Source: Gordius albopunctatus (Eukaryota). Taken from it: a stretch of 64,000 bases of DNA. Positions 1-46,000 of this stretch are shown piece by piece. The notes under the pieces were generated by a model. It saw only the letters and a list, made by a program, of their open reading frames with translations, made no database searches and had not been told where the DNA came from. Position numbers and translations under genes: made by a program. Location of the stretch: the NCBI GenBank assembly GCA_964276515.1, contig OZ193909.1:17484001-17548000 (forward strand), in the 5' to 3' direction. Each line of letters opens with the position of its first letter. Position 1 is the stretch's first letter.

Positions 1-58
1 TAAATTTAAAAGGCTACCTTTTGGCTTAAGCATTTCAGCTGCTATTTTTCAGCGTGCT

Positions 59-2035
59 ATGGCGTCGATTTTTAGTAATTTAGACGGTATAATATTTTAT
101 TTGGACGATATATTAATAACGGGACGAACGAGAGATGAGCATGATTTGCGTCTTGTTCAGGTCTTGAATTTAATTAGTCTAAAAGATTTAAAAGTTTCAG
201 CTAAAAAATGTGTTTTTGGGACTGAACAAATTAGCTATTTAGGACATATTTTAAATAATGGTAATATTCAACCAAAGTATGACAAGATAGAAGCCATTAA
301 AAATGTTAAGTTGCCTACTAATAAAAAGGAACTATCGTCATTTATGGGTTTAATGAATTATTATAGTAAATTTATAAATAATTACACTGAATATGCTGGA
401 CCATTATACGAACTGACAAAAAAAGACGTCATATTTAAATGGAGTAAAAGTGATATTGAAAAATTTGATTTTTTGAAAAATATCTTGCTTAAAAAACCCA
501 TTTTAAGATGTTTTGATCCTAACAAACAACATATATTAAGGGTCGATGCGTCTAATATTGGTATTGGAGGCGCATTATGTCAGGTCGAGGATGGTATGGA
601 GCATCCAATTTTGTATTTTTCGCGTAAATTAAATAAAACAGAGGTCGGATATTCGGTTATAGAACGCGAGGCATTAGCGATGATTTACGGTTTACAGCGA
701 TGTCGCGAATATTTAATTGGCAAATCGTTTACTGTGATCACCGATCATAAGCCGCTTGTTGCTTTATTTAAAAAGGCGAACGCCGAACTATTAATGTCTC
801 CTAGATTACAACGTTGGCTTGTAATGTTGGGTAATTTTACATTAACCCTAAAATACGGCAAGGGAGAGGATAATCATTTGGCTGATGTACTATCGCGTTT
901 GGGCGCAGATAACATTGAGGCCGAAGATTTACCTTTGTCTTGTGATATTATAGGAGGACATGTAATCAATTCTTTGAATATTTTAGATTTAAATGATATT
1001 GTTAATGAAAGTAACAGGGACCCTGAAATATGTAAAGTAAAGAATATTTTGGCGGGCTTAGACGATAAAATTAATGTACCTATTCCTTTTAAACATATTT
1101 TGAACGAATTATATTTAGAAGATAATGTTCTTAAAAAGCATGAAAGGTTAGTGGTACCGATTAAGCTTCGTCAGGAAGTGCTAAAAATAGTACATCAGGG
1201 ACACTGTGGAATGGTTAAAATGAAAAGCTTGGCTAGACAATATGTCTGGTGGCCGCAGTTAACTAAAGATATCCAAAAATTCGTTAGGCAGTGTGAGCTT
1301 TGTAAGCTTGATGCACCGATGCCGCGTAGAAATAAAAAATCTAAGTGGCCTCGTCCTAAATTTCCATGGGAGCGTATACACATAGATTTTTTTGAATTAG
1401 ATAAAAAACGGTACATATTAATAGTAGATGCATTTTCCGGTTGGACGGAATTTAGAATTATATCAAATATATCTAGTAGAGTAACAATTACAATTTTGAG
1501 GGAATTGATAGGAAATTATGGGTTTCCAGAAATAATTGTTACGGATAATGGTAAAGCTTTTGTTAGCAACGAGTTTAAACAATTTTGTTTAAAATATAAA
1601 ATTAATCATATTTTAACTCCACCGTACCATCCAAGCTCTAATGGGCAGGTAGAAAGGTATGTAGGTATTGTTAAAAAATGGTTAAAAATAGCTAAAGTAA
1701 CGAAGGACGGAACGTGGTTATCTAAACTTTATCACAATATGTCACCACGGTATCCTAATCGTGCTCCGGTTAGCTATGAGTTTTTGAATCGTAAATTAAG
1801 GTACCCACCCGATTTGTTAAAGTTCACTGAACACCAAACATCGCCCAGTATTAGTGTGCCAAAGTTTAAGGTAAACCAAAGAGTTTGGTATCGAAACTAT
1901 TTGGGGAAACCTAAATGGGTGTTAGGTGTAATTATTGAACAATTAGGGACAAAAGTTTATAAAGTTAAGGACTCAAATGAAAATAAATTTGAAATTAGGC
2001 ACGCGGAACAATTAAAATTGTTTGATGCTATATGA
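59..2035 (+). CDS. pol: Gypsy Pol, 5'-truncated by the window edge (RT C-terminal part, RNase H, integrase)
   Basis: YLDD; RNase H DAS..GIGG and TDHKPL; integrase HQGH..CELC, IHIDFF / VTDNG / GQVER. Confidence 0.95.
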   Translation: MASIFSNLDGIIFYLDDILITGRTRDEHDLRLVQVLNLISLKDLKVSAKKCVFGTEQISYLGHILNNGNIQPKYDKIEAIKNVKLPTNKKELSSFMGLMNYYSKFINNYTEYAGPLYELTKKDVIFKWSKSDIEKFDFLKNILLKKPILRCFDPNKQHILRVDASNIGIGGALCQVEDGMEHPILYFSRKLNKTEVGYSVIEREALAMIYGLQRCREYLIGKSFTVITDHKPLVALFKKANAELLMSPRLQRWLVMLGNFTLTLKYGKGEDNHLADVLSRLGADNIEAEDLPLSCDIIGGHVINSLNILDLNDIVNESNRDPEICKVKNILAGLDDKINVPIPFKHILNELYLEDNVLKKHERLVVPIKLRQEVLKIVHQGHCGMVKMKSLARQYVWWPQLTKDIQKFVRQCELCKLDAPMPRRNKKSKWPRPKFPWERIHIDFFELDKKRYILIVDAFSGWTEFRIISNISSRVTITILRELIGNYGFPEIIVTDNGKAFVSNEFKQFCLKYKINHILTPPYHPSSNGQVERYVGIVKKWLKIAKVTKDGTWLSKLYHNMSPRYPNRAPVSYEFLNRKLRYPPDLLKFTEHQTSPSISVPKFKVNQRVWYRNYLGKPKWVLGVIIEQLGTKVYKVKDSNENKFEIRHAEQLKLFDAI

Positions 2036-2062
2036 TTATGTTCAACGTTTATTGTTATTCAG

Positions 2063-2530
2063 ATGAGAATTAATGCTGCCTGGTGCGACGTGGATTTAGA
2101 GGTGACATCCACGGCATCGAGGAACGAAAGAGTTCCAGTGTATATACTAATAAAAGTGGAGACGAACGAAAGTGCAAGATTGTTGAACTTGACGCACTCT
2201 CCGGGTCCGCCGAGACAGGTTGGGAGATCGTACGCACAAGGCTCAAGAGCCCCAAGACAACCAAGACAGGAAGAGGCTGCGGTCAGAAGTAGAGATACGA
2301 ACGAAGAGCAGCGACGAAACGTGTCTGGGAATCAACCGTTGCTGCGGCCTCCGATCTTGAAAAGAAAGAAGTGTTGGGGGTGTAAAAGCAAGCACTTGCC
2401 CCCAATGTGCTTCAAAGCAAAAACTGGTTCGGGGAAGAAAACTCAACTCAAAGATGTAGCAGAGCTGGAGTCCAGGGTGACTATGGACACCCTGACCTTG
2501 GACAGCCCCGGTCCTTCAACTTCCCAATAA
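2063..2530 (+). CDS. ORF3 of the retroelement (155 aa, basic, CX2CX3HX4C motif), copy 1
   Basis: Open ORF between the pol stop and the PPT; ATG immediately preceded by TTATTGTTATTCAG acceptor; KRKKCWGCKSKHLPPMC. Confidence 0.7.
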   Translation: MRINAAWCDVDLEVTSTASRNERVPVYILIKVETNESARLLNLTHSPGPPRQVGRSYAQGSRAPRQPRQEEAAVRSRDTNEEQRRNVSGNQPLLRPPILKRKKCWGCKSKHLPPMCFKAKTGSGKKTQLKDVAELESRVTMDTLTLDSPGPSTSQ

Positions 2531-2537
2531 TGGAAGG

Positions 2538-3509
2538 TGTGGTATACGTGTATACCACGATACCAGATGTTATAGTATACAGCGTTTTATTTAATGTCCG
2601 CGGTATAAGCGTGTTATTTAATGTTCGCGGTATACTTTGATCTTAATTAAAATTATTTTATTAATGTTAATGTAAAAGGGTTAACGAACGGTTCCGCAAT
2701 CCTTGTAATTAAAAAAAAGGAATTGGTCAAAAGAAGACACTTTTACCGCAGGTTAACCCAGACGCGGAAGTGGCTAATTCTCTTTGACGCTCTCTTTTTT
2801 TAATTACTTTTACTTTTTATTTTTAACTCAGCCACATCTGTTACTAATCTTTGCAGCCCCGTCTGAAGATTTGCTAATTCAATCAAGCCGACCACCCTGG
2901 GGAGATCCAACAGCTATAAAAGCGAAAATCTCACTTCACTAAAAAAGTCCTCGTAAATTTTTCCCCAGTCCTTCGAAGTTTTCCCCTAACTTTGTATTGT
3001 CCCCAAAAACCTTATAATTGTTTCCAATCCCTACGCCTTCGCTCTTTTACTATAATATTATTGAATTGTGTANNNNNNNNNNNNNNNNNNNNNNNNNNNN
3101 NNNNNNNNNNNNNNNNNNNNNNNNNNNNNNNNNNNNNNNNNNNNNNNNNNNNNNNNNNNNNNNNNNNNNNNNNNNNNNNNNNNNNNNNNNNNNNNNNNNN
3201 NNNNNNNNNNNNNNNNNNNNNNNNNNNNNNNNNNNNNNNNNNNNNNNNNNNNNNNNNNNNNNNNNNNNNNNNTCACTTCACTAAAAAAGTCCTCGTAAAT
3301 TTTTCCCCAGTCCTTCGAAGTTTTCCCCTAACTTTGTATTGTCCCCAAAAACCTTATAATTGTTTCCAATCCCTACGCCTTCGCTCTTTTACTATAATAT
3401 TATTGAATTGTGTAATTTAATCTTCGCGAATATTAATCTGTCTTTATCGTTGTAAATAAATTTGCATCTTTCTTTTATACTTAATTTTCTTTCGCCTTAG
3501 ACCGCCGTC
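2538..3509 (+). repeat. 3' LTR of plus-strand copy (contains the N gap and a 142-bp duplicated overlap; lacks the terminal CA)
   Basis: Starts TGTGGTATACG after purine tract AATAATGGAAGG (2526-2537); matches 8586-9217 reverse complement; TATAAAA at 2915, AATAAA at 3455. Confidence 0.9.
3073..3272. other. Assembly gap (200 N); flanks 2931-3072 and 3273-3414 are the same 142 bp
   Basis: Direct reading of both flanks. Confidence 0.98.
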
Positions 3510-3827
3510 TGCAAAGATTAGTAACAGATGTGGCTGAGTTAAAAATAAAAAGTAAAAGTAATTAAAAAAAGAGAGCGTCAAAGAGAATTAGCCACTTCCG
3601 CGTCTGGGTTAACCTGCGGTAAAAGTGTCTTCTTTTGACCAATTCCTTTTTTTTAATTACAAGGATTGCGGAACCGTTCGTTAACCCTTTTACATTAACA
3701 TTAATAAAATAATTTTAATTAAGATCAAAGTATACCGCGAACATTAAATAACACGCTTATACCGCGGACATTAAATAAAACGCTGTATACTATAACATCT
3801 GGTATCGTGGTATACACGTATACCACA
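3509..3827 (-). repeat. Truncated 3' LTR (first ~319 bp only)
   Basis: Matches 8899-9217 apart from a substitution at 3611 versus 9001. Confidence 0.92.
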
Positions 3828-3834
3828 CCTTCCA

Positions 3835-4302
3835 TTATTGGGAAGTTGAAGGACCGGGGCTGTCCAAGGTCAGGGTGTCCATAGTCACCCTGGACTCCAG
3901 CTCTGCTACATCTTTGAGTTGAGTTTTCTTCCCCGAACCAGTTTTTGCTTTGAAGCACATTGGGGGCAAGTGCTTGCTTTTACACCCCCAACACTTCTTT
4001 CTTTTCAAGATCGGAGGCCGCAGCAACGGTTGATTCCCAGACACGTTTCGTCGCTGCTCTTCGTTCGTATCTCTACTTCTGACCGCAGCCTCTTCCTGTC
4101 TTGGTTGTCTTGGGGCTCTTGAGCCTTGTGCGTACGATCTCCCAACCTGTCTCGGCGGACCCGGAGAGTGCGTCAAGTTCAACAATCTTGCACTTTCGTT
4201 CGTCTCCACTTTTATTAGTATATACACTGGAACTCTTTCGTTCCTCGATGCCGTGGATGTCACCTCTAAATCCACGTCGCACCAGGCAGCATTAATTCTC
4301 AT
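3835..4302 (-). CDS. ORF3 of the retroelement (155 aa), copy 2
   Basis: Identical translation to 2063-2530; acceptor AG at 4304-4303 abuts the ATG. Confidence 0.7.
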   Translation of the reverse strand: MRINAAWCDVDLEVTSTASRNERVPVYILIKVETNESARLLNLTHSPGPPRQVGRSYAQGSRAPRQPRQEEAAVRSRDTNEEQRRNVSGNQPLLRPPILKRKKCWGCKSKHLPPMCFKAKTGSGKKTQLKDVAELESRVTMDTLTLDSPGPSTSQ

Positions 4303-4329
4303 CTGAATAACAATAAACGTTGAACATAA

Positions 4330-7300
4330 TCATATAGCATCAAACAATTTTAATTGTTCCGCGTGCCTAATTTCAAATTTATTTTCATTTGAGTCCTTAA
4401 CTTTATAAACTTTTGTCCCTAATTGTTCAATAATTACACCTAACACCCATTTAGGTTTCCCCAAATAGTTTCGATACCAAACTCTTTGGTTTACCTTAAA
4501 CTTTGGCACACTAATACTGGGCGATGTTTGGTGTTCAGTGAACTTTAACAAATCGGGTGGGTACCTTAATTTACGATTCAAAAACTCATAGCTAACCGGA
4601 GCACGATTAGGATACCGTGGTGACATATTGTGATAAAGTTTAGATAACCACGTTCCGTCCTTCGTTACTTTAGCTATTTTTAACCATTTTTTAACAATAC
4701 CTACATACCTTTCTACCTGCCCATTAGAGCTTGGATGGTACGGTGGAGTTAAAATATGATTAATTTTATATTTTAAACAAAATTGTTTAAACTCGTTGCT
4801 AACAAAAGCTTTACCATTATCCGTAACAATTATTTCTGGAAACCCATAATTTCCTATCAATTCCCTCAAAATTGTAATTGTTACTCTACTAGATATATTT
4901 GATATAATTCTAAATTCCGTCCAACCGGAAAATGCATCTACTATTAATATGTACCGTTTTTTATCTAATTCAAAAAAATCTATGTGTATACGCTCCCATG
5001 GAAATTTAGGACGAGGCCACTTAGATTTTTTATTTCTACGCGGCATCGGTGCATCAAGCTTACAAAGCTCACACTGCCTAACGAATTTTTGGATATCTTT
5101 AGTTAACTGCGGCCACCAGACATATTGTCTAGCCAAGCTTTTCATTTTAACCATTCCACAGTGTCCCTGATGTACTATTTTTAGCACTTCCTGACGAAGC
5201 TTAATCGGTACCACTAACCTTTCATGCTTTTTAAGAACATTATCTTCTAAATATAATTCGTTCAAAATATGTTTAAAAGGAATAGGTACATTAATTTTAT
5301 CGTCTAAGCCCGCCAAAATATTCTTTACTTTACATATTTCAGGGTCCCTGTTACTTTCATTAACAATATCATTTAAATCTAAAATATTCAAAGAATTGAT
5401 TACATGTCCTCCTATAATATCACAAGACAAAGGTAAATCTTCGGCCTCAATGTTATCTGCGCCCAAACGCGATAGTACATCAGCCAAATGATTATCCTCT
5501 CCCTTGCCGTATTTTAGGGTTAATGTAAAATTACCCAACATTACAAGCCAACGTTGTAATCTAGGAGACATTAATAGTTCGGCGTTCGCCTTTTTAAATA
5601 AAGCAACAAGCGGCTTATGATCGGTGATCACAGTAAACGATTTGCCAATTAAATATTCGCGACATCGCTGTAAACCGTAAATCATCGCTAATGCCTCGCG
5701 TTCTATAACCGAATATCCGACCTCTGTTTTATTTAATTTACGCGAAAAATACAAAATTGGATGCTCCATACCATCCTCGACCTGACATAATGCGCCTCCA
5801 ATACCAATATTAGACGCATCGACCCTTAATATATGTTGTTTGTTAGGATCAAAACATCTTAAAATGGGTTTTTTAAGCAAGATATTTTTCAAAAAATCAA
5901 ATTTTTCAATATCACTTTTACTCCATTTAAATATGACGTCTTTTTTTGTCAGTTCGTATAATGGTCCAGCATATTCAGTGTAATTATTTATAAATTTACT
6001 ATAATAATTCATTAAACCCATAAATGACGATAGTTCCTTTTTATTAGTAGGCAACTTAACATTTTTAATGGCTTCTATCTTGTCATACTTTGGTTGAATA
6101 TTACCATTATTTAAAATATGTCCTAAATAGCTAATTTGTTCAGTCCCAAAAACACATTTTTTAGCTGAAACTTTTAAATCTTTTAGACTAATTAAATTCA
6201 AGACCTGAACAAGACGCAAATCATGCTCATCTCTCGTTCGTCCCGTTATTAATATATCGTCCAAATAAAATATTATACCGTCTAAATTACTAAAAATCGA
6301 CGCCATAGCACGCTGAAAAATAGCAGCTGAAATGCTTAAGCCAAAAGGTAGCCTTTTAAATTTAAAAAGTCCGGCCTCGGTATTAATTGTTAGGAGCCGC
6401 GATGACTTTTCATCTACCTGTAACTGCAAATAAGCATTGGCAAGGTCAATTTTTGAGAAAAATTTAGCGCCTATTAATTTAGCAAAAATAATTTCTAACC
6501 TAGGTAAGGGGTATTTTACCTCAATAATACATTTGTTTACCGTGATTCTATAATCAGCACAAACCCTAATTGTACCGTCAGTCTTCCTGACAGGTACTAA
6601 AGGTGTGGCCCATTCCGAATAGCCAATAGGTTCAATTACATTATCCTTTAACCATGTTTTAATTACCTCGTCGACCTTATTTTTTAAAATAAAAGGTACG
6701 CGTCTGGCAGAACAAAATTTAGGAATGGCATTTAAATCAACTCTAACCGAAAATATTTCGTCATTTAAACATCCTAAACCAGGTTCAAAAATTTTAGAGA
6801 ATTGGTTTTTTATATTATCAATCTTGGTGTGCCATGTTGTGACCAAATCAGACTTTGCCTCCAAATTAGCTAATTTATGGCATGTGGGTACCAAAGGTAC
6901 CCCGCACTTTAAATCGGCCTGAAAAATGGGTTGTTCTTGGCAGACGGGACCTCCCGAGTTATCTGATTTATGAGCTATGCGCTCTAACTCAGAATGAAAA
7001 ACGGGTGTGAAATCCCTGCACTGTGAACTACCTGACAACGCCTTCGACATCACCATGGACTTAACATCAACTTTCAAAATTTTGCGAGCATTACTTTTAT
7101 TACATAATCCCCACCATTGAATTTTGGGCCCAATTATCCTAATCCAGGACCAGCCCATTATGTTATCTACGTTCTCTTTAATAATAAATAAATCCAATTC
7201 GACTACAAATTCTGCCACTTTAACCAAAACATTAATTTTACCTAAAACAGTTATTAAAGTATTATCAAGTTGCTTAGCAATTATATTAGCAGTTTCAAAA

Positions 7301-7458
7301 TTTCGATCCGGCCAAAATTTTTTAAATGTTTTAAAACTAATAATGGATATTGCGGCGCCAGTATCTAATATAAATGTTAGCTTAAAATTATCGACATTTA
7401 CTATCACTAAAGGTGAAGCTGACGAATTTAAAACTTTATTTATATCTACCTTGCGCAT
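4330..7458 (-). CDS. pol: Gypsy Pol polyprotein (aspartic protease, RT, RNase H, integrase), intact, 1042 aa from first Met
   Basis: LDTGAAIS protease; WATPLVPV, IDLANAY, LPFGL, YLDD RT motifs; RNase H; HHCC and DDE integrase. Confidence 0.97.
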   Translation of the reverse strand: MRKVDINKVLNSSASPLVIVNVDNFKLTFILDTGAAISIISFKTFKKFWPDRNFETANIIAKQLDNTLITVLGKINVLVKVAEFVVELDLFIIKENVDNIMGWSWIRIIGPKIQWWGLCNKSNARKILKVDVKSMVMSKALSGSSQCRDFTPVFHSELERIAHKSDNSGGPVCQEQPIFQADLKCGVPLVPTCHKLANLEAKSDLVTTWHTKIDNIKNQFSKIFEPGLGCLNDEIFSVRVDLNAIPKFCSARRVPFILKNKVDEVIKTWLKDNVIEPIGYSEWATPLVPVRKTDGTIRVCADYRITVNKCIIEVKYPLPRLEIIFAKLIGAKFFSKIDLANAYLQLQVDEKSSRLLTINTEAGLFKFKRLPFGLSISAAIFQRAMASIFSNLDGIIFYLDDILITGRTRDEHDLRLVQVLNLISLKDLKVSAKKCVFGTEQISYLGHILNNGNIQPKYDKIEAIKNVKLPTNKKELSSFMGLMNYYSKFINNYTEYAGPLYELTKKDVIFKWSKSDIEKFDFLKNILLKKPILRCFDPNKQHILRVDASNIGIGGALCQVEDGMEHPILYFSRKLNKTEVGYSVIEREALAMIYGLQRCREYLIGKSFTVITDHKPLVALFKKANAELLMSPRLQRWLVMLGNFTLTLKYGKGEDNHLADVLSRLGADNIEAEDLPLSCDIIGGHVINSLNILDLNDIVNESNRDPEICKVKNILAGLDDKINVPIPFKHILNELYLEDNVLKKHERLVVPIKLRQEVLKIVHQGHCGMVKMKSLARQYVWWPQLTKDIQKFVRQCELCKLDAPMPRRNKKSKWPRPKFPWERIHIDFFELDKKRYILIVDAFSGWTEFRIISNISSRVTITILRELIGNYGFPEIIVTDNGKAFVSNEFKQFCLKYKINHILTPPYHPSSNGQVERYVGIVKKWLKIAKVTKDGTWLSKLYHNMSPRYPNRAPVSYEFLNRKLRYPPDLLKFTEHQTSPSISVPKFKVNQRVWYRNYLGKPKWVLGVIIEQLGTKVYKVKDSNENKFEIRHAEQLKLFDAI

Positions 7459-7488
7459 ATCAATGTAATTTGAATTATCTTGCGCTAG

Positions 7489-7992
7489 TCAATCAAACAC
7501 AGTTTGCCCATTAGCAACTGTTTGCGCGTGATTGACGTGTCCTCTACACTTATAACAAAATTTACCGTCCCCAACCTCTTTTGTGTTGTCGTAATTATTC
7601 GAAGTGGTGGGTGCGTTAAAACTTGGAACGTTTTTCTGGTTAAATCTATAGTCAGTGTAGGGTCTATGGGGTTGCGCATAATTATTAAAATTTTCTCTCG
7701 GACCCCGTTGTGCAAAATTTTCCGAAATATATCTGCAATTTCCCGTATTCCCCCTTTTAAAATATTTATTGTCACAATCCCTTTTGAGATGTCCCCGTTG
7801 CCCACATCCATAACATCTTATATTAGATTTAAAATTAGCCTTAAGTACAAAAACTTTTTCTATTTTCTTTAATTTATATAAGACAAATAAAACTAATATG
7901 CTTAAAATTGATATATATACAAGTAATTTATCTGCGCACAAATAATTAAAAAAATTGATACCAATTGACGGCGGCGTGTAAAAACCAAACAT
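7489..7992 (-). CDS. gag: Gag-position ORF (167 aa): hydrophobic segment plus CCHC zinc knuckle; in frame with pol
   Basis: LLVYISILSILVLFVLY followed by KLKK; CYGCGQRGHLKRDC (CX2CX4HX4C); ends TGA CTA G, then 10 open codons to the pol ATG. Confidence 0.75.
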   Translation of the reverse strand: MFGFYTPPSIGINFFNYLCADKLLVYISILSILVLFVLYKLKKIEKVFVLKANFKSNIRCYGCGQRGHLKRDCDNKYFKRGNTGNCRYISENFAQRGPRENFNNYAQPHRPYTDYRFNQKNVPSFNAPTTSNNYDNTKEVGDGKFCYKCRGHVNHAQTVANGQTVFD

Positions 7993-8567
7993 TATAAATT
8001 ACCAAATGCAATCAGAACTATATTTAAATTAATTAAACTAAATAATTTAAATAGAAATCAAATTCAATCAAACAGCAATTTAAATTAAATAAACTAAATA
8101 ATTTAAATAGAAAATCAAATTTAATTAAATAAAGCAATTTAATTAAAACCAAGCTTAATTAAGTAATCTAAACAAAAGTTTTCGTTTAATCAAAAATTAA
8201 TTAAGTAAATCAAACAAGAGTTTTCAAATAAATTAATTATCATAATGTATACAGTAACCATTTTATTAAACATAGACGTATATAATAATTATTTAATATA
8301 AGTATCACGATTAAAAGTAAAATTATCAAACATAAAAACCCTTTATCCATTATTATGCATAAATAGAAATATTCACCTCCTAATAACTTCAATATAATAT
8401 TTTACAACCGAACATTATATGATCAAATCTATTCCAATATTTTACAACAGAAATATTCGATCAGACCTTATATTCAATTATAATTATTTAAACCAACATT
8501 CAAATAAAAATCTTTTACTAAAAAAATTATTTTTACTTACGATTCCTTTTTTTTAAGAAGAGGGCGA

Positions 8568-8578
8568 TTCTGACACCA
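8568..8578 (-). promoter_or_regulatory. Primer-binding site, likely tRNA-Leu
   Basis: TGGTGTCAGAA 7 nt inside the 5' LTR end; resembles the complement of the tRNA-Leu 3' end. Confidence 0.75.
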
Positions 8579-8585
8579 AATTTAA

Positions 8586-9217
8586 TGGACGGCGGTCTAA
8601 GGCGAAAAAAAATTAAGTATAAAAGAAAGATGCAAATTTATTTACAACGATAAAGACAGATTAATATTCGCGAAGATTAAATTACACAATTCAATAATAT
8701 TATAGTAAAAGAGCGAAGGCGTAGGGATTGGAAACAATTATAAGGTTTTTGGGGACAATACAAAGTTAGGGGAAAACTTCGAAGGACTGGGGAAAAATTT
8801 ACGAGGACTTTTTTAGTGAAGTGAGATTTTCGCTTTTATAGCTGTTGGATCTCCCCAGGGTGGTCGGCTTGATTGAATTAGCAAATCTTCAGACGGGGCT
8901 GCAAAGATTAGTAACAGATGTGGCTGAGTTAAAAATAAAAAGTAAAAGTAATTAAAAAAAGAGAGCGTCAAAGAGAATTAGCCACTTCCGCGTCTGGGTT
9001 TACCTGCGGTAAAAGTGTCTTCTTTTGACCAATTCCTTTTTTTTAATTACAAGGATTGCGGAACCGTTCGTTAACCCTTTTACATTAACATTAATAAAAT
9101 AATTTTAATTAAGATCAAAGTATACCGCGAACATTAAATAACACGCTTATACCGCGGACATTAAATAAAACGCTGTATACTATAACATCTGGTATCGTGG
9201 TATACACGTATACCACA
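8586..9217 (-). repeat. 5' LTR, 632 bp, TG...CA
   Basis: Begins TGTGG (9217), ends GTCCA (8586); TATAAAA at 8840-8834; AATAAA at 8642-8637. Confidence 0.92.
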
Positions 9218-9385
9218 ATCAGCTTAGAAACTTTAGGTATATCATTGGCCGCCAACCAAGCTTTATTGCAATAGGGTCTCATTGTTATCATGTTTTGCTG
9301 ATATATTGTGTAGTTTAAGTCAATAGGTACCATTATAGACGTAGCCCGATCCTCTACCCTCAATTTGCCCTCCGTTAATTTTTAC

Positions 9386-9515
9386 TAGTGCTGTAAATGA
9401 ACGCGTTCAAATTTTATGAACGCGTTCATGAACGGCGTTCTTTTATTTTTTGGTGAACTTTGAACGTGAACGCGTTCTTTTTTTTGATGAACGCGTTCGA
9501 ATTTAACGTTCATTC
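9386..9515. mobile_element. MITE end with repeated GAACGCGTTC palindromes (hAT-like)
   Basis: TAGTGCTG start followed by several TGAACGCGTTC units. Confidence 0.5.
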
Positions 9516-13091: not shown

Positions 13092-14387
13092 TTATTTGCG
13101 CGATTTAGATAAAAATTCATTGATTATATCTTGAGTGTCTGGAATTAAATCTCTATGAATATTCAACAAGGTCAAACCTATAAGCCTATATAAAATTAAG
13201 AGTTTGTAATAAAATGTATTTACCTCTCTTGCCCAGTTCTATTCCTCAAGTAAGTTTTAAGTCTTCTCAGCGTAGAAAAACTTCTTTCATTAGAACACGT
13301 TGTTACTGGGAGTGTTGCTAAAATCTGGTATAACACTCTTATATTTGGATATAGAAGCAGCTTGGAATTATAATCCCACAATGCTTTTAGTGCATAAAAA
13401 GGCAGGACTTCAGGGTTACAATCTTTAAAAGATTGATACCAGAGTTTAATCTCAGCCTCATAAATTTCTTGATTTCCATTCAAATCATCCCCATAAAAAT
13501 TGGCTAAATTCAAAAAGTTCGCCAGTTTAACTTCAGATAGCTTTACAGGTGGTTGTAGTAGTAAAGAATGAAATCCCATGAGAATTTGTTTATTCTCAAG
13601 AAACCTTGTGTCCATTTCTACCAAAAAAGTGTCTAAGAATGCATTATACAGAGTTATTCTATAATAAGCCTCCGGGGTTTGTTGGGCATTTCCTCTGGGA
13701 ATCGAAATCTCAAAGTCATATTGTTTTCCCATCAATGTGACATCTTTAAAAATCCTGGAAAACTCTACCTGAGAATTATTTCTAATTAATTTAATAGCTT
13801 CCACAACGTTTTCGGCCGCATTTATTGCCTGTGATAAGTCCAGGTTAACGCTTTGCAAATGAATACTAAGATTTAAAGTATAAGCAAAAATTTGCTTTAG
13901 TGTGTGTAATGATAACCAAAAATGGCCAGTTTTAAGTGCTGATACCAATAGCATGGCACCCGAAGAGGAATCATTGTCTGCCCATTCACTAATCTGCTCA
14001 AGGGTTGTGATGATTGAATCTCTTAATTCAAAAAAGCGGTTTATTGCTTGATGCTTTTGAACCCATCTTGTTTCACAGAGAGTTTTTAATTTCAAATTTT
14101 TGGAATCTGAAGACTTTACAATTGAATCAAACTTTATTCAAATTGATAGAGGAATTCATATGAAATGCATACGTTTTATAACCACAAGGAAAATTTAGGA
14201 AAAATATATTAACGCCTAAAAATACTTAATGGTTGTTGAAAATAAGAGCTCTCCATAGTTAATTAAATAGCACTCATTTTATAATATTTACTATATAATG
14301 CTATATTAGAAAATAAAAAATATTTTTTCGAAATCCGCGGGGGGGGGGGTTTGAACCCTAAAACCCCCCCCCTTGCGTACGCCACTG
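13092..14387 (-). pseudogene. Internally deleted hAT transposon (ZMYM1/PRKRIR-like transposase C-terminal half)
   Basis: LCETRW and LPVTTCSNERSFSTLRRLKTYLR; a 38-nt intron (13186-13223) leads to RLIGLTLLNIHRD...SRK*; CAGTGGCGTA terminus at 14387. Confidence 0.85.
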
Positions 14388-14399
14388 AACAATAAATAG

Positions 14400-15560
14400 A
14401 TATTGGTGGCGCAATATGACCAAGGATATCAAAGAGTATATTGTGTCATGCCATGTATGCCAGACCCATATCCCAAGGATTGATAAGGCTGTTCCTGTGC
14501 TTAATAACGTGGCCGTCGTCCCAGCACCATGGAAACAAATAGGGATTGATTTGTGCACGTTGCCCATAACCGAACACGGGCATATTTGTATGTTGGTCGC
14601 CATTGATTAGTCTCACTCGGCCAAGGAGACTTCATACAATTTGTGGGAAATATTTTGCCGATGTGGGCGTCCCAAAGTAAAAACTTAGTTGATTTATTAA
14701 TTTTTTAGATTGTTATAAGTGATCAAGGCCGTGAGTTTGTGAACTCACTGTCAGAAGGCTTGTACGCCCTTACTCGCGTACATCACAGGATCACATCAGC
14801 CTACCATCCACAGGCTAATGGACTGGTGGAAAGGGCCAACCGCACCATCGTTAACTCGTTGGTAAAGGTGTTGGAAAACGAAACCAATAAATGGGACGTT
14901 GAAGAGATGTGGACACTGGGGATTTGGTCCACAGAAGTGGATATCATGTTAGCGGCGACAGTTTTTAATATAAATATATATGTTTATTGTTCTCAATTCG
15001 GCCAATGGGCCCCTTATACACCAAAATTAAACGACAAATTATGTACTAATAATATTTATTTACACCATTCTATTAATCATTTTTAATATATATTGGATTG
15101 TAACGAATAAATTTATTTCCATTTAATGATACAATCTATAAAATTAAACCAAAAATTTAGACAGGTATTTATAGATAAACAGATAAATATTAAAAAAATT
15201 AGAAATATGCACAAAATTTGGCAGAAACTTGAGAAATATTCACAAATTTAGACACAAATTTATAGATAAACAGAGAAATAATAAAAATAAACAATTTAGA
15301 CACATAGAAATATCAATAGACAGATATTTATAGATAAACAGGTAAATATTAAAAAAAAATAGACAGAAACTTGAGAAATATTCACAAATTTAGACAAAAA
15401 TTTATTTAAAAATCAAAAAATTTAGACAGAAATGATAAATATTAAAAAAAAAATAGACAGAAATTCTATATGCAACTGAATTATATGGATGTCATGTAAA
15501 CGTAATTGACGTATGTCAAAATTGCAAAGTGTATCTGTCAATAGAACGATTTCCTTAGTG
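14400..15560 (+). pseudogene. Ginger-like DNA transposon relic: gypsy-type integrase fused to an OTU-like tail
   Basis: WWRNM..CHVC, IGIDL, 32-nt intron 14677-14708, ISDQGREF, AYHPQANGLVER, then WSTEVDIMLAATVFNINIYVY..IYLHH..NHF; minisatellite 15150-15470. Confidence 0.65.
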
Positions 15561-32849: not shown

Positions 32850-33478
32850 TAGTGTTGTTAAATTGCTAACTTTAGCAATGCTAACTATGTGCTATGCTCG
32901 AGCACAAACAGTAGCTGGGTAATATGCTAGTTTAGCACAAAGAGTGCTAACTGTTCGGTGCAATAGTTTTAACAGTAGCACGTAAAAATGCTCGAGAGGT
33001 TAGTCGAAGCAGCCAAATCTGTTAAAAAATTTAGCAGGAGCTCGAGCAGGTAGTAGATTGAATTGCTTTTGTCAAACTTTTTTAGTTACTTACAATAATA
33101 TTTGCTCATATTATATATCATAAATAAATTAAGAACTTTGCCCCCCCCCCATCTCCCCTCTGGTGAGAAAGAGGATAAAAAATGGAGGGGGGATAAGTTC
33201 TTAATTTATTTATGATATATAATATGAGCAAATATTGTAAGTTATTAAATTTTGACAAATAGCAATTCAATCTACTATCTGCTCGAATTTACTGCTCGAG
33301 CTCCTGCTAAATGTTTTAACAGATTTGGCTGCTTCGACTAACCTCTCGAGCATTTTTACGTGCTACTGTTAAAACTATTTCACCGAACAGTTAGCACTCT
33401 TTGTGCTAAACTAGCATATTACCCAGCTACTGTTCGTGCTCACGTTTTTAGTTGAAGCTGCTTAGCAATTTAACAACT
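32850..33478. mobile_element. Fold-back MITE (nearly whole-length palindrome); fragment also at ~62505-62650
   Basis: GTTGTTAAATTGCTAA / TTAGCAATTTAACAAC ends; internal arms ~32895-33135 and ~33197-33440. Confidence 0.85.
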
Positions 33479-33479
33479 A

Positions 33480-33935
33480 TAGCCCCAAAGACGCCCAAGA
33501 GCTTAGTAAGTGCAATCTAAGGTTGAGCCTCTTCTCACGCCAAATGGCGCATAAGACCACGATCGAGGTCGCACAGATGTTAAAAAGAAGAGAAGTACAC
33601 ATCGCCTGCCTACAAGAGACGAGGTGGAACGGAACGAAAGCTCGGGAATTAGGAGAAGGATACAAGCTTTTCTACAGTGGGTCACCAAATCGTAGAAACG
33701 GGGTCGGTATCGTTCTAAGCGAATCGTTCAAGGACAAGGGGGTGGAAGTAAAGCGTTGTTCCGACAGGCTAATTTGGGTGAATATTGCAGATCAAGGGGG
33801 CCTCCTAACCGTTATGTGCGTGTATAACCCCTAAATTGGATATCTGGAATCAGAGAAAGACATATTCTTTGTTTCATTGGAAAAGGAAATACAAGGAATA
33901 GGACAGGAAGAAAGGCTAATTATTGGGGCAGGTGA
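33480..33935 (+). mobile_element. RTE LINE AP-endonuclease fragment
   Basis: IACLQETRW, GYKLFYSG, RNGVGIVL, LIIGAGD. Confidence 0.85.
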
Positions 33936-36849: not shown

Positions 36850-39310
36850 GTATGGTGTTGGTTTAAAAAAATTTAAATTATAGCATGCTAGGATTAATAA
36901 TATTAAAGAAAGGTTAAACAAAATTTTTAACGTGGAATTGGGTTCTTTAAATAATATCATTTTTAAATACTGGTTAATTCTAATGCAGACCACTTTTTTG
37001 TTCTGCGAGAAGCATACCCTTAATTTGGAAAGATAAAGTGCACCAGGTTTTTGTAACTGGCTTAAATATGATGTCATAGAACCGATCAAATATTCGAAAT
37101 GGACAACTCCCTTAGTTCTTGTCAAAAAAAAGTGATGGAACTATTAGAGTGTGCGTGGATTATCGCGTTAATGTTAATAAATTGGCAATTGAAGTTAAAT
37201 ATTCATTACCTAGGTTAGATATGGTTTTAGCTATTTTAAAAAGTAGTAAATAATTTTCCAGGCTAGATTTAGCTAACGCCTAATTAAGATTATTAACAAT
37301 TAACATCATCGATAAGGATTTATTTGCATTTGAACGGTTACCTTTTAATTTAAGTGTATCTGCACCTAATTTTTAGAGGGCGATAGCATTTATATTTAAT
37401 AACATAGAAGGTGTATTTTTTATTTGGATAATATTTTGATCATAGGTCCTAATCAGGATGAACATGATTTACTGTGGAGAAGGTGTTAAATTTAAATAAA
37501 ACTAAAAACCTGTTAGGCATTGACCAAGTAATTTATTTAGGTAATGTAATAACTGATGGTAATGCTAAACCTAATTTTAAAAAATAGACGTAAAAACATT
37601 GATAGATCAAAAGATAGAAACTAGCATCTTTTATAAATTTTATGAATTATTACACAAACTATTCTGGTTCTTTATATGAATTTATTAAGGAAAATGGTTT
37701 ATTTAAATGGGATAATTTATATCAATGCTGTAATTTCTTAAAAAATGTTTTATTCGTTGATCCAATAGTTAGATGCTTCGATCCTGATAAAGAGCATATT
37801 TTAAAAGCGGATGCATCTAATAGGGGTATTGGTGAGACTATATGTCGGATGAAAGGTGAAATATAGCATCCTATTATTTATTTTTTCCGCAAGCTTACTA
37901 AAGCTTATCTAAATTATTTGGTGGTAGAAGATCAGGGTCTTGCTATGGTTTATTAATAGACTTTGTAATGAATATTTAATTGGCAAAGAGTTTTAATAAT
38001 TAACTGATCATAAGCTAGTGGTAGTTTTATTTAATAAAATAAACACAGGTTTTTAATGTCACTAAGACTCCAGAGATGGTCATTAATTCTGTTAATTCTA
38101 GGTAATCTAATCATTCATTAATATCAAAATATAGGGAAGGTAAAAGTAATCTTTTAGGTGATATTTTGTCGCGTATGAACAAAGTAATTTATGGTATTAC
38201 CTAATTAGAATAGTGGTACCTTTATAATTTGGATATCACGTTGTTCACATTCCTTTTTACTATATATGAATACACATTATTTATACTCCTCCTTATTCTA
38301 TTCACAATCATTATAATTTGAATAGCCCCCAACTACCTTACGAGTTATTTATATTAACCTCTTTACAATGGTATATAAGCTAATGCTTAACGATATAGAA
38401 GGACTTTGGTTTTATATTAATAAAGTAGGCTTAAACCCTACAAATTAATGATATTTCTATCTCAGTTAATAATACGCAATTATAAATTATTAATACCAGT
38501 TGAGGTGCGTTCCATATTTTTACACCCACAAACCATCCAAGTTCTAACTTCCACCTGATTTTTTACGTGACAACGCTCATAATGATAATTTAATACGTAA
38601 GACTAAATACAATATTAATGATTTGGTATGGTCTAGGAATTATAATGGTGAGCCTAGATAGGAATTATTGATGGTAATAAACCATATGGGTTATAAAATA
38701 TATAAATTTAAGTCATTAAAGACTGAAAAATAGATACTAGGCATCTTGAACAATAAATGAGTTATAAAGCTTAATTTGTCTATTTAATTTTTATATAAGT
38801 ATCTTCATGGTGCAATGTGCAGGTAGTGACGAGAATATCGGATATTCATCCATCGGGTCCATTGCACATGTCATTCACTATTGGGGAGGATGGCGTTCCT
38901 AGGATGAGTCATTTCTTTAAGAGTCCGGCAGCCATGAGGATCCCAGCGGGGGTCCCGGCAATCAGAACTAGGTATTCGAGAGAGTTACCGGGGCCTAAAT
39001 ATTGCCGTGTTAGATGCGGGAACCGGAGGTGGTACGGGGTTTGCCAGAGATGGCATAACTTACCCATGTGTCCGCCCCCGAGGATAACTTTAAATTACAA
39101 TTTAATTACGATGCCAGTCGTAACGTTGGCGATGAAAGTTATGGATACTTTAATAACTTACTTCGGCGATGTACTTGGCAAGTAATTTGCCGGGATAGCG
39201 ATTCAGCTGGTAAAATAGGAGGTGTGGCATATGTTATATTGACTTTTCTTATATTGCCTCCCGTTCGATTATATTCTAAATATATTGTCTCTCGCCCGAT
39301 TATATTATAC
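36850..39310 (+). pseudogene. Decayed Gypsy element related to the 3509-9217 element (RT, RH, IN end, ORF3, start of LTR at 39223)
   Basis: Frameshifted matches such as [41 protein letters not shown]; purine tract AAAATAGGAGG then TGTGGCATATG. Confidence 0.85.
38817..39185 (+). CDS. ORF3-like ORF of the decayed element
   Basis: Lies between the IN end and the PPT; RRWYGVCQRWHNLPMC resembles KKCWGCKSKHLPPMC; start codon uncertain. Confidence 0.5.
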   Translation: MQVVTRISDIHPSGPLHMSFTIGEDGVPRMSHFFKSPAAMRIPAGVPAIRTRYSRELPGPKYCRVRCGNRRWYGVCQRWHNLPMCPPPRITLNYNLITMPVVTLAMKVMDTLITYFGDVLGK

Positions 39311-39311
39311 A

Positions 39312-40372
39312 CTAGATGAACCCGGCAAACTTTGTTTTGCCATTTACCCGGGTGTATAAAATTATGTTGTAATTTTAGGGCATATTTGATGATAAAGCGG
39401 TTATTGAAGTAAAAATAAAGTTTGATAATTTTTAAACAAATAGTTAAAGAGGGTCCAAGGCCCAGGCCCACCCAAGAGAGAAAACCTGGCCCCATGCCCC
39501 CCAAGGGAAAAATCTTTGGCCCCCTGGCCCTTCAAGCAATTTTTTTTTATTTTTTAGTAATTAAGAAACAATATCATAATTATTTGTTTCTGAATAAAAC
39601 TTTTAATTCTGAACTTAGTAATGTCCGAAGAACTGAGATATACCAACATTAATTGGCACTTTGTTAATTGTATTTTCATTTTTCTCTTTATTTAACACGC
39701 AAAAAATGACAAAATTAGATTTTTTTAAATTTATTTAGCCACGCAGGTGGAGACACGACCGCCCTATAATAATAATAATTGACGTAAAAAATAAGCAAGA
39801 AAATGACTTTGATTCATGGGCGTACCCAGGGGGGGGGGACAGGGGGGGGAAGCAGCCCCCACCCCCCTAATTTAAAAAAATATTAATTTTTCAATGCAAA
39901 ACCCCTGAAAAATTATGTTTTGCCCCCCCCCCCCCCTAATTAGTCTGGGGAGGGCAGGGAGGACGGCTAGCCCCTGCGGGTCTCAGGAAAATATTTGGAT
40001 AGTCGAGAAATTTTTTTTAATCTGCCCCCCCCTCTAATTCAAAACCTGCGTACGCCCATGCTTTGATTTAATGTTTCAAATCGTAAAAAGTTTCCATTTT
40101 CCGCAGCACATGCCTACATTTATCACACTAACATAGTTTTATTTAGATAGGCAGTACGTCATGAGGTTGTGTTTGATTGACATTTTATTAAACGGCAAAA
40201 CATATAAAACAAACTAACTCAAAAAATACTGCACCTATTTGGCTCGAACATATCTTAAAACATGCTCCAGAGTGTGGGGAATAAAGTGTGAAATTTTGAG
40301 CCAAATCGGTCCGGTAGTTCTCCAAAATTGGTGGCGGCATACATACATAGTTTTATTTTTATATATATTATA
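39312..40372 (-). mobile_element. Non-autonomous Helitron (with nested MITE 39815-40060)
   Basis: Minus-strand 3' end GGCAAA-N6-TTTGCC hairpin, GGGTTCAT, CTAG|T; body homologous to 54678-55622. Confidence 0.75.
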
Positions 40373-40689
40373 CATTTATAATTGTACTTTAATAGGCTGT
40401 CATGATTGTTTAAGATGTAGGCAGTAAAAAATTCACGAATTGCTTTTGTATCCAAGGAATCCCGTAATTGATAAGTAATAGGAGTGTAGTGCCTCTGGCG
40501 ATACCTAAATTACCGAATTGTAGAATGTTGGTGGTGATGCCTCGAGTGACAATTAAATTACCGTTAATTGGGTTTAACGTATATCTTCGTTTCTGTATAG
40601 ACCATTATCATTCTCTCGATTTTAATTCTTCCTGACGTTAATTATAATATTATCCTGCGCGGGCGTCCTGAGTAGGATCCTATGCGGTG

Positions 40690-41070
40690 ATGCGAAGGTA
40701 TAAACTAAATAATAATATCAAAGTATTTATAACAAAATTTGAGCTATTCCTAAGGACCGAGCTTAAACCCGGGACGAACGAGAGAAAAGCTGCGATGCTA
40801 TTAGGCAACCTCGAGGGGTAGGTATTCCAATTATTGTTATAAGTCTTTAGACCGCGAGATCTTACAGGAATTTTATACGAAGAAGCTAAGAAACAGCCAA
40901 GGAAATTATTCGATAGGAATTCATGTGTGATGGCAATGAGATATAAATTCTCAAAGGTTCGACAAGAGGTGGGGGAGACGATATACGTATACGCGAAAAA
41001 ACTCAATGCCACAACTCACAGATGCAATTTAGGAAACAAAAAATTGCAAAACAGATTATTTTATTAATTT
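40690..41070 (+). pseudogene. gag: Decayed conventional Gypsy/Mag gag capsid region
   Basis: KAAMLLGNLEG*..LYEEAKK..VMAMRYKFSKVRQEVGETIYVYAKKL..RCNLG with in-frame stops; possible PBS TGGCGA at 40496. Confidence 0.65.
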
Positions 41071-41419
41071 TGCCCTAAATTGAAAAGTGTTTTATTACTC
41101 GCTTAAAATATGCGCATCAAAAATGCTTAAACACAAATTTTAACCTTTAATGATAAACTACTGTGAAAAGCGTAGATTTTAATCTAATACTTACTCAGCT
41201 TATAAGCCAGTCAAACAACCTATTTGTCAAACATATATTAGGAGATCTAATTAAAAAATTAACATTATGATAGAGTTGTTGCTGTCGTCGTCCCTGTAAA
41301 TATTAATAAATATTAAATTCTAATAGATAAGAGGTCTAATAGAGGCAAGCAACATAGATTACTATAATCAAAAAATGTATTTCGATGTGTATGCGGCTTC
41401 ATATATAATTTTGCACAGA

Positions 41420-42440: not shown

Positions 42441-43046
42441 GTTCTTTGCTAATATATATACATATCTTCACGAGCGTGAACAGGTTGAGACTGGGACTGA
42501 CAGTTGTCCAGTATATTTATACAAATTATAAAAATTACTATCTTACCTTCCTTAAAATTATCAATGTTTTGCTTCCTTAACTCAAATCCTTGCATTAGGT
42601 AAGCGAAGAATAGATTTATGCCTATTGGCTTATATGCAGAAAACATGTGATGTATATTTTAAAAAAAATTTCATAAAGGTAACACAGGCTTTAAAATCCA
42701 CATACATACTTAATACTTTGTATATTTTCAAAAAATGCTAACATCTTCATTAGGAATTTTGTGTTAAAACCAAAATCACGTTAATTTAATGGATTTATTC
42801 TTCTAAACAAGTATTTTTATAAAGTGTGTAAACAAGTTTGATTTTTTAAAAGGATAATTTGGATTTTTATAACTTCTGAAACTAGTGTGTCTATTTAGGT
42901 AAGGCAATAGGTATGTGTTAAGAACTTAAAATACCTTGTTTTTGTTGATTACCTATCTTATAAACATAAATATACTCTTTGTACTGTGTCAAATGCTGTG
43001 TATATACATATTGATTATATATTTTGCTTTAAGATTTAGTATCATT

Positions 43047-46000
43047 ATGATCAATGACTCAGAAGGTAGCAGGCTATCTTCAATGTTCAAACGTGTTTCA
43101 ACCTTAATTGAACCTAGGGGAGGGAGTCAAGTAATTTTTTACAAACTCTATCTATTATATTTATAGGATGAGCTTAAAAAATTTTGGATGCCAGACAGTA
43201 ATTGCAAAGAATGCTATGAATGTGGAGGCCACTTTACAACATTTAGACGTCGACATCATTGCAGAATTTGTGGACAAATCTTTTGCAGTAAATGTTGTCA
43301 CCAAGAAATTCCAGGAAAAAAATTTGGGTTTGAAATTTCTAACTATAATCTATTATTTTTTGTTTGAAATATCTAAAAATTTTGTAGTTTAACAGGATCC
43401 TTGAGAGCATGCCATTATTGTTGCTCTTACCTAACCAAACATACAAATTTGACGTCAAAAAAATTACCTTCTCTTAATCAATTGAATAAATTGGAAAAAA
43501 GTAAGAGCATAAGCTATGATGACTTTACTTATGAGCACAATGCCAAACTATCTATTAATGGCATGCCATTAATTAATCCTGCGCAAAAAGATTCTGTCAA
43601 TGCAGAAGCAAATTTATATTATAGTGAGACTGATACAAAGTCTCTCTCAAATGATTTCAGTCTTAATGAAGCTGATTATTATACGGATAAATCCCTGGAT
43701 TTATTCTATGACCAAGATGCAACAGATATAACATGTAATTTATATAGAATTAACATACAAATACATTTTTTATCATTTTTTTTATTATTAAACTAACATT
43801 TTTGGATGATAAGTTTGAATTACACATTTTAATTTTGTAGCTCGAGAAGTTAATGTGCCCAATTACTCTTCTCTCCCTAATTCTTATAACCTGGAAGCCC
43901 TAGGTTTGGGAGCCTATTTATCGAGTGTGTACGAAAAAATGCAGCACCCCCTGCTCGGTATCAAGCTAGCAAACAATCGATTACATTTCAAAAATTATCC
44001 CAATACCATCACAGGTATACAATATTATTATTCGTATTTCTGAATAAATATAAATAAAATTAAAGAGAAAAATAAATTTATAAAGAACTGCCATTATTAA
44101 AGGTGCCCAGGTTATAGAATGGATCCTACGCCTGCCTAGCATAGCAAATCGTGAAGCCGCTTCATCCTTAGCTCAAGCGCTGTTGGATTTTGATTACATT
44201 ACATCGGTCACCAATGGTAAAACTAACAAAGAGGCCAAGCCTGCTTTCCGCGATAATGACATTTACAAAGCAGGGTTGGCATCTGTTACAGGCATAAATA
44301 AGCTTAGCCTACCTGACCCCACTAGCGGTATACACAATGATGAGCTAAGTTTTAACATTATATAATATCCTTTTTGTATAGAATGCGAATATACGAAAGT
44401 TTTGAATATGACCTTAGCTGGCGCCTCTTCGGTATCTTACACAACTCGGTCTCAAAGTCCGGAAGTTGGCCTAAAGGTTTTTGTCACATTTATATATGTT
44501 TAATAAAGCAAGCTGTTATTATATAACATCCACATTCCCTTTACTAGAACGGCTGAATGGTTTTAAGTTTATAAAAACCATTGTATGGAGATAAAAGAAT
44601 TTGCTTATTAGATCAACGTTATAACTATAAACTCTTATATTCATTTCGGCTTATTATTTATAGTACATATAAATTTTTAGTTGAACTGAAATTTAAAGTT
44701 GAAACTGAACTAATTTCTTTTTTAGGTAAGGAACGATTAATTCAAACTAATACTTTTTTTGAGGAACCTTAACAACACCATTAAAGTTTATGTACAAAGG
44801 AAAGATAAAAAATGCTAAGTCTTCTTAAAATTCTATATCATTAATAGGAATTACAGAGGTCCTTAAATATTGACTTTGTGATTTCACCCCGTAATATGAA
44901 AGATAACTGATAGATGATTATATGCTAAATAATATGTTTTTTGTTTTTTACCAAGTCGTCCATCTTTTGAGATAAATGAAGTTAAAGGTGCAAAATGGGC
45001 ATTTAAACCTTTTTTAAGGCTGTATTTCCACCCCTGTTTTTTAATATTTATTTTAGATTTTCTCCCCTCTCTCTCCTACGCTTCCACTATCGCCCCTATA
45101 TCTAGCCAAGCACACAAAAAGGGTGCGGTTTTGGAAGTAGAAGGAGAAAGTGAAGTATGTAGCGCGCCCTAGGGTGTGCTGAGGGGGTATTGTAATCTTC
45201 AGAAAAAGAGCCACACCCACACTGTTAGTCTCCTTCTCTGGTTGAATACCGACCATTAACTGGTCTATGATTTTTTCATAGAGACCCGATGGACCATTAG
45301 ATATATGCTAAGGGGGTGTTATTAGCTAGTTGTTATTGTCATCATCATTAACACGATATGTGTTGATTTGTTAATCTAAGCTATCCTATCTATAAAGTAT
45401 AAGTAAACTAATATTAAATCAAAGACTTTGCTAATTACCGGACAGGACATTCAACTTTTACTTTTATGGGCGTACGCAGGATTGTATAATTTTTTTTTTT
45501 GGGGGGGGGGGTAAGGGGAAGGGAGGGTTACAATATCAAATAAACTGTATCTAAGCTTGGTGTTTTTGTTATGCCCCTCCAAAAATATAATGTTCTTAAG
45601 CCCTTGTAATTTTTACACAAATTATAAATTATTTTCATCTTTCGACTAATTTTTATCTGTGTAAAAGCACAACAAACATTTTATTTCAAAAAAATCATTT
45701 TCATCTAAAAAAATAGTTCCAAAAATATTTAACCATGAAAATTTTATAACCGCCTCCTTCAAAAAATCCTTCTTATGTTTCTAGATTTTTATAAGTGTCT
45801 TAAAGTCTTTGATGTAACTAAACTATAATATTTTAACCCATTTAATTTAGTTATTAATCAAAAAACCTTTCAGGAATTTCCCGTCCCTCCCCCTCATTTA
45901 CGCCACTGATTTATCCACATTGTTGCTATTTTATGTTTAAAAAAAGTAAATAGTACTAATTACCTCTTCCCCCTCATGCCTTATTTGTTTCATCAATGTG

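Follow-up and report, generated by a model that had tools for sequence, protein, structure and literature searches.

In-frame gag and pol genes separated by a stop codon have been described in several retroelements. Tj1 of Schizosaccharomyces japonicus, Tosmo1-3, and Tcry1, which are fungal Ty3/Gypsy elements of the Tf1/sushi type, are reported to conserve a TGA followed by CTA or CTG at the gag-pol junction (bioRxiv 2022.12.06.519325), and removal of the stop codon abolished the activity of Tj1 (PMC4600332). UGA-CUAG has been described as the strongest known context for readthrough; it operates in the mammalian genes OPRK1, OPRL1, MAPK10, and AQP4, and UGA-CUA alone gave 1.5% readthrough in HEK-293T cells (PMC4132726). 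Sindbis virus also uses UGA-CUAG readthrough (PMC2194720). The gag and pol genes of Tca2 (Candida albicans) and Moloney MLV are likewise arranged as gag-stop-pol in one frame, and both junctions combine a purine spacer with a structure of the pseudoknot type (PMC2194720). However, the Tca2 junction sequence alone was reported to fail to direct readthrough (PMC2194720), which shows that simple readthrough does not follow from the gag-UGA-pol arrangement itself. Other routes have been described for foamy virus, whose Pol is made from a spliced RNA without Gag (PMC3705302), and for the plant LTR elements Tos17 (PMC3977881) and BARE-2 (PMC13570524), which are reported to be mobile without a Gag of their own. 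Our search of published papers found no animal case among Mag-like elements and no capsid-less layout of the kind described below. Gao et al. reportedly surveyed gag-pol recoding signals in 2003 and may list animal cases.

Here we analyzed a 64,000-nucleotide stretch of Gordius albopunctatus DNA (hereafter, the window), whose minus strand carries a Ty3/Gypsy LTR retrotransposon in region 3509-9217, with LTRs, a primer site, a purine tract, and a pol showing the PR-RT-RH-IN domain order (Pfam) that defines Ty3/Gypsy. All features of the element given below are on the minus strand. The 5' LTR (8579..9217; 3' end approximate) starts with TGTGG at 9217 and contains a TATA-like box at 8840 and AATAAA at 8642. 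It is followed by the primer-binding-site-like TGGTGTCAGAA (8568..8578), the sole match within the window and presumably a primer site of the tRNA-Leu type. Next comes a splice-donor-like GTAAGT (8535..8540), a candidate by motif and the single GTRAGT within 8830-3800. No AUG occurs in 8830-8541, 5' of this candidate donor, and the stretch that follows it (7993..8534) resembles a leader or an intron, being AT-rich (GC 12-22% over most of its length) with eight upstream AUGs. ORF1 (7492..7992, 167 aa) is terminated by TGA-CTAG (7485..7491), an in-frame stop in a leaky context whose TAG doubles as a possible 3' splice site. A spacer of ten codons (7456..7488) leads to the AUG at 7458-7456, the first in the pol frame, and the protease aspartate lies 31 residues past this AUG. 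The uninterrupted pol (4330..7488, 1052 aa), which encodes protease, reverse transcriptase, RNase H, and integrase, ends at a second TGA. An acceptor-like motif ending at 4303 lies directly 5' of ORF3 (3835..4302), which is in the pol frame, has 49% GC, and encodes 155 aa from its own AUG, including a CX2CX3HX4C knuckle. A purine-rich tract (3828..3839) precedes the 3' LTR, whose assembled part (3509..3827) is interrupted by LTR sequence in inverted orientation (3273-3509) and by a gap of Ns (3073-3272); the end of this LTR and the target-site duplication were lost to the assembly gap.

Over as much of the 3' LTR as was assembled, the LTRs agreed at 318 of 319 letters, indicating that the element is a recent insertion. 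With near-identical LTRs and an unbroken pol, Pol must be made or must have been made recently. The 3' half of the element recurs in inverted orientation at 1..3072 of the plus strand (pol from residue 376, ORF3, and LTR; no differences over 2856 letters) and stops short of the ORF1-pol junction. Region 1-3827 contains two identical 3' halves placed tail to tail, with 200 N and scrambled fragments of LTR between them, an arrangement that may be an artefact of repeat collapse in the assembly. The flank at 9218-9400 is itself a repeat and is very deeply covered in the sequencing runs. Elsewhere in the window, we found a hAT transposase fragment (13220-14137, minus strand) and, on the plus strand, integrase remnants (14404-14834), an endonuclease fragment (33466-33834), and an inositol polyphosphate kinase (60353-60901).

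The junction sequence quoted in the earlier note was recovered exactly at 7500-7453 of the minus strand, its single occurrence in the window. Reading the frame from 7992 to 4330 also confirmed the one frame with one stop that the note had described: 167 codons, TGA at 7491-7489 with CTAG at 7488-7485, and 1052 codons, so that full readthrough would give a product of 1220 residues with the predicted junction peptide TVFD-X-LAQDNSNYIDMR. Of the 2053 TGA triplets in the whole window, counted over both strands, only 5 (0.24%) are directly followed by CTAG, and against this background the context at the junction is unlikely to have arisen by chance. The mammalian genes in which the same context acts also include LDHB and MDH1. 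In OPRK1, OPRL1, MAPK10, AQP4, and Sindbis virus, as the respective reports describe them, readthrough was measured, whereas for this element it is predicted from the stop context (PMC4132726; PMC2194720).

A weak GCGCA/TGCGC stem after the stop had also been pointed out. Both arms are present (GCGCA at 7485-7481 and TGCGC at 7457-7453), but the fold is ordinary: the 60 nt past the stop gave -7.6 kcal/mol (z -0.79 against 300 shuffles), and 29 of 60 coding windows folded equally well or better. The stem was therefore rejected as a readthrough stimulator. No significant stimulatory 3' RNA structure was found among seven windows (six with z between -0.26 and -1.43, and one with z +1.28), in which the element differs from Tca2 and Moloney MLV as described in PMC2194720. 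Two other recoding events were considered. We rejected a +1 shift of frame at the UGA, since the +1 frame runs into a TAG immediately, and readthrough of the second TGA from pol into ORF3 was thought unlikely, given its TGA-TTA context and the acceptor-like site before the ORF3 AUG.

ORF1, pol, and ORF3 form one frame that is interrupted only by two TGAs, as would be expected if TGA were a sense codon through an altered code or selenocysteine insertion. However, no internal TGA occurs in pol, which has 19 TGG, and none occurs in pol, ORF3, and the host PIKfyve gene taken together, which have 33 TGG. PIKfyve (43041-51287, plus strand) has a 1524-codon open frame with its best match in Gordionus sp. 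(54%; 414 bits versus 331 for the next match), and the alignment runs to the final residue of the relative, with a TGA immediately after it. This match points to a horsehair worm (nematomorph) as the likely host. The host therefore reads TGA as a true stop under the standard genetic code. The TGG/TGA counts and the PIKfyve terminus largely refute an altered code, and selenocysteine was rejected because a search found no SECIS family at E values up to 1 in 3400-9400. We consider a sense reading of the TGA extremely improbable.

To compare the junction with other copies, we read contigs of public runs; seven runs from three studies contain the element, and no run was recorded as RNA. Across 7440-7545, 46 contigs aligned (24 from run X2, 15 from X3, 7 from X6, and 0 from X7), of which 23 were listed. 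A contig was taken as bridging when it carried at least 31 letters on either side of the stop, and differences were reported only away from the ends of the aligned pieces. Three divergent bridging contigs were found among those listed, with 13 differences in 89 letters (X2 record 3), 12 in 103 (X3 record 9), and 8 in 87 (X6 record 17), corresponding to 85-91% identity and carrying two organism labels (A and B). Positions 7481-7499 were unchanged in all three, while 7477-7480, 7500, 7504, and 7511 varied. Exact matches also spanned the stop (X2 records 1 and 5 and X1 record 7); the window itself may derive from the material behind runs X1 and X2. A sense codon in other copies, which the earlier note had named as the mark of a private nonsense mutation, did not appear: the stop and CTAG were intact in each of the three divergent contigs. 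TGA-CTAG is thus common to related copies and not private to one copy, although this support is modest, since the chance of no change per bridging contig is 33-51% for 7 letters and 5-16% for 19 letters and the contigs share ancestry.

These contigs also bear on the view that the family inherited the stop as a nonsense mutation and is carried wholly by the proteins of other elements, with the stop context arisen by chance. Conservation of the seven letters alone is not significant, and the lack of a capsid (see below) makes the family already seem dependent. On the other hand, the 1052 codons of pol are intact, 10 of the 16 listed pol differences were at third positions, and a TGA-CTAG with a background of 0.24% is shared across two organism labels. 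We regard such a neutral stop as improbable.

Other contigs differed in length or arrangement. Two divergent contigs (X3 record 24 and X6 record 31) were five letters longer than the window across 7505-7871 of ORF1; either these are broken copies or part of ORF1 is non-coding. In contigs of X3 and X6, 7772, just past the ORF1 knuckle, was joined to 4908-4911 in the integrase region with about 29 other letters between, which suggests rearranged derivatives in organism B. The summed contig depth in organism B fell about tenfold or more over 8425-8826, which includes the 3' part of the LTR, the primer site, and the donor, and the sequence may differ there in this organism.

Between the stop and the pol AUG, three of the six listed variable sites were synonymous and the other three fell in one codon (20% expected, P ~0.10), weakly favoring translation of the spacer. 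By eye, one contig of depth 1842 (X2 record 7) appeared to be four letters longer in this interval. Four extra letters would break the readthrough frame and leave a start at the AUG unaffected, and this contig suits either an AUG start or a dead sub-lineage.

A start at this AUG could follow from splicing. Pol would then be made from its own spliced RNA, in which the donor at 8540 is joined to the TAG ending at 7485, ORF1 is absent, and AUG 7458 comes first; the TGA would be a plain stop and CTAG a splice acceptor, although both uses could coexist. Foamy virus is the model for this route; as described in PMC3705302, it belongs to a retrovirus genus with its own Gag, whereas splicing in the element is predicted from motifs. 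The single perfect donor motif just past the primer site, with its AUG-free upstream region, fits such splicing, as does a branch-point-like CTAAT (7510..7514) about 25 letters 5' of the TAG with an AG-free zone. By a criterion set post hoc, a CTRAY 16-40 letters 5' combined with 25 AG-free letters, 63 of the 2768 YAGs of the whole window qualify, as do 2 of 95 in the coding region of the element, the junction TAG among them. The invariant block covers the eight letters 5' of the stop, ORF3 already looks splice-expressed, and the contig with the longer spacer is compatible with splicing. In contrast, the pyrimidine tract ranks no higher than the median (56 of 114 YAGs equal or exceed its score), the changes in the spacer lean synonymous, and since any position before the AUG would serve for an acceptor, its exact fall within TGA-C-TAG would be a coincidence. 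We regard the spliced origin of Pol as the chief rival to readthrough but judge it rather unlikely on balance.

The same AUG could also be used by ribosomes that stop at the UGA and re-initiate, or on a transcript from a cryptic internal promoter. It is in frame ten codons past the stop, has a purine at -3, and precedes the protease aspartate by 31 residues. The pol of Tj1 is reported to lack such an AUG (PMC4600332), a difference that favors an internal start here, and a minor promoter has been described in the Tca2 junction (PMC2194720). However, re-initiation after an ORF of 167 codons is usually inefficient, and CUAG would be left unexplained; we hold this route to be no less improbable than the neutral stop.

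To place the junction among relatives, we compared Pol sequences. The closest matches were single-ORF elements with 36-38% identity, which we take to be of the Mag clade. In a midpoint-rooted RT-RH tree of 76 sequences, the element was a long-branch sister to 62 Mag-like sequences, within a set that had been fetched with a Mag-like alignment and without named references. Of 79 metagenome loci fetched by RT alignment, 54 had a readable junction from the double knuckle to RT, the others being too short or lacking a motif. Single ORFs accounted for 43 of the 54 junctions, frame changes for 8, and in-frame stops for 3; the two relatives with a single in-frame stop had TAA or TAG located inside the protease. 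A TGA-CT stop before the protease was found in none of the 54. The conservation of TGACTAG that the earlier note had proposed to check therefore holds among the readable copies but does not extend to these Mag-like junctions. The Mag-type single gag-pol ORF with two adjacent knuckles is absent from the element. Since the relatives are mostly single-ORF elements and none has a TGA-CT junction, the stop looks derived in the lineage of this element.

The element shares in-frame genes split by TGA-CTA/CTG, within Ty3/Gypsy, with Tj1, Tosmo1-3, and Tcry1, so far as these are described in bioRxiv 2022.12.06.519325 and PMC4600332. The motif at a gag-pol junction is thus less unusual among Gypsy elements than had been implied when frameshifting or a single ORF was given as their usual arrangement. 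According to the same sources, the Gag of the fungal elements includes a capsid, and an AUG is lacking in the pol of Tj1. In contrast, the element here is from an animal, is Mag-like by its best matches, has no capsid that we could find, carries an AUG ten codons past the stop, and has a third ORF. The UGA-CUA junctions of the two groups probably had independent origins.

ORF1 had been labeled gag. It encodes a hydrophobic helix at residues 23-41 (Kyte-Doolittle 2.49), a lysine-rich stretch, one CX2CX4HX4C zinc knuckle (60-73), and a low-confidence tail. The knuckle ORF is thus present, but no capsid domain was found in the element by Pfam, the knuckle being the only match in ORF1. A profile built from 38 Mag-like Gags also detected only knuckles in the element, where any capsid would have to be very divergent; the same profile found a degenerate capsid elsewhere in the window (40708-41058, E 7e-14). 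From these comparisons, ORF1 does not appear to be a full Gag. The AT-rich leader (7993..8534) occupies the place of capsid coding in Mag-like relatives, and a deep contig (X1 record 8) was identical to the window over 7973-8554, so this copy is not alone in having lost the capsid. Codons 1-50 of ORF1, which include the hydrophobic helix, were open in just 60 of 5000 shuffles, although among open shuffles of this AT-rich stretch, 37 of 592 were as hydrophobic. ORF1 homologues were absent among 26 candidates, and viral-contig scans gave no matches. Single-sequence folds were of low confidence (pLDDT 46 and 38) except for one confident N-terminal helix in ORF1, and atlas matches (at most 0.83 for ORF1 and 0.91 for ORF3, with recognition below the threshold) serve as leads only.

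The helix followed by basic residues recalls sORF2/FAST-like fusogens, described in bioRxiv 2025.03.14.642691 as having a single membrane helix and then at least three K/R within 15 residues. ORF1 shows this pattern by hydropathy, which, as noted, some open shuffles also reach. The described fusogens are separate ORFs of 63-107 aa, often starting with MGxxxS/T, whereas ORF1 has 167 aa, is fused to a knuckle, and starts with MFG; the likeness is loose.

The knuckle of ORF3 scored 11.5 bits with the profile of knuckle 1 and 1.6 bits with that of knuckle 2, and is of the type carried first by Mag-like Gags. The ORF1 knuckle scored 15.6 bits with knuckle 2 and 13.0 bits with knuckle 1. Mag-like elements share the PR-RT-RH-IN order, the knuckle types, and the style of primer site with the element, but they have a capsid and an adjacent double knuckle. 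By these profile scores, it looks as if the two knuckles of one Gag now flank pol on opposite sides. Three of the four listed differences in ORF3 were synonymous, and ORF3 has a weak counterpart in an older relative (frame 38799-39185; 2 of 1000 shuffles scored as high).

This older, broken relative (36884-41190, plus strand) shows 62% DNA identity over the RT region. Its pol is followed by the ORF3-like frame, a purine tract, and, near 39223, a start with TGTGG; a 1-kb inserted repeat separates these from the capsid remnant (40708-41058). The whole may represent a tandem arrangement in a family that carries a capsid. Its pol part (36884-38712) has no protease region and hence no junction to compare.

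Taken together, we predict from the stop context and the reading frame that Pol is produced by programmed UGA-CUAG readthrough, with a probability of roughly 0.62. Readthrough is preferred because the context is the strongest known and has a precedent in Gypsy elements; the points against it include the AUG in frame ten codons past the stop and the candidate splice acceptor at the same TAG. Ribosomes would occasionally pass the UGA and make the 1220-residue ORF1-Pol fusion, which the protease of the element would then cleave. The CUAG context, and not the weak stem, would drive this event, at a level on the order of a percent if the mammalian reporter data apply. Use of the donor GTAAGT at 8540 would remove the AUG-laden leader from the ORF1-pol message, and splicing from 8540 to 4303 would yield ORF3 separately.

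Readthrough, as the earlier note had proposed, is thus the most likely route, but its further proposal that readthrough sets the ORF1:Pol ratio presumes a structural Gag, and no capsid was found. A ratio of Gag to Pol usually serves capsid assembly, a reason that falls away here. The family would also need the capsid of another element, and a related capsid remnant lies at 40708-41058. Tos17 and BARE-2, so far as described in PMC3977881 and PMC13570524, are plant elements, and the present element differs in retaining a knuckle ORF, a stop in a leaky context, and a downstream knuckle ORF. One speculative and doubtful scenario is that the family abandoned its own capsid and now uses a membrane-anchored knuckle protein, a readthrough Pol fusion that is likewise membrane-anchored, and a second knuckle protein made behind pol from a spliced RNA, with copying on membranes or inside the shell of another element.

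Readthrough alone would be a modest addition, as stop-separated gag-pol with UGA-CUA is already known. Most of the remaining surprise lies in the missing capsid, and the larger puzzle is the means by which a young family spreads when its pol is intact but no capsid can be detected, and its reason for rationing Pol even so. If the prediction is true, the junction would represent an independent animal origin of the UGA-CUA trick known from fission-yeast Tj1, in an element whose relatives have a single ORF, and would provide a natural readthrough signal from a phylum with almost no molecular data.
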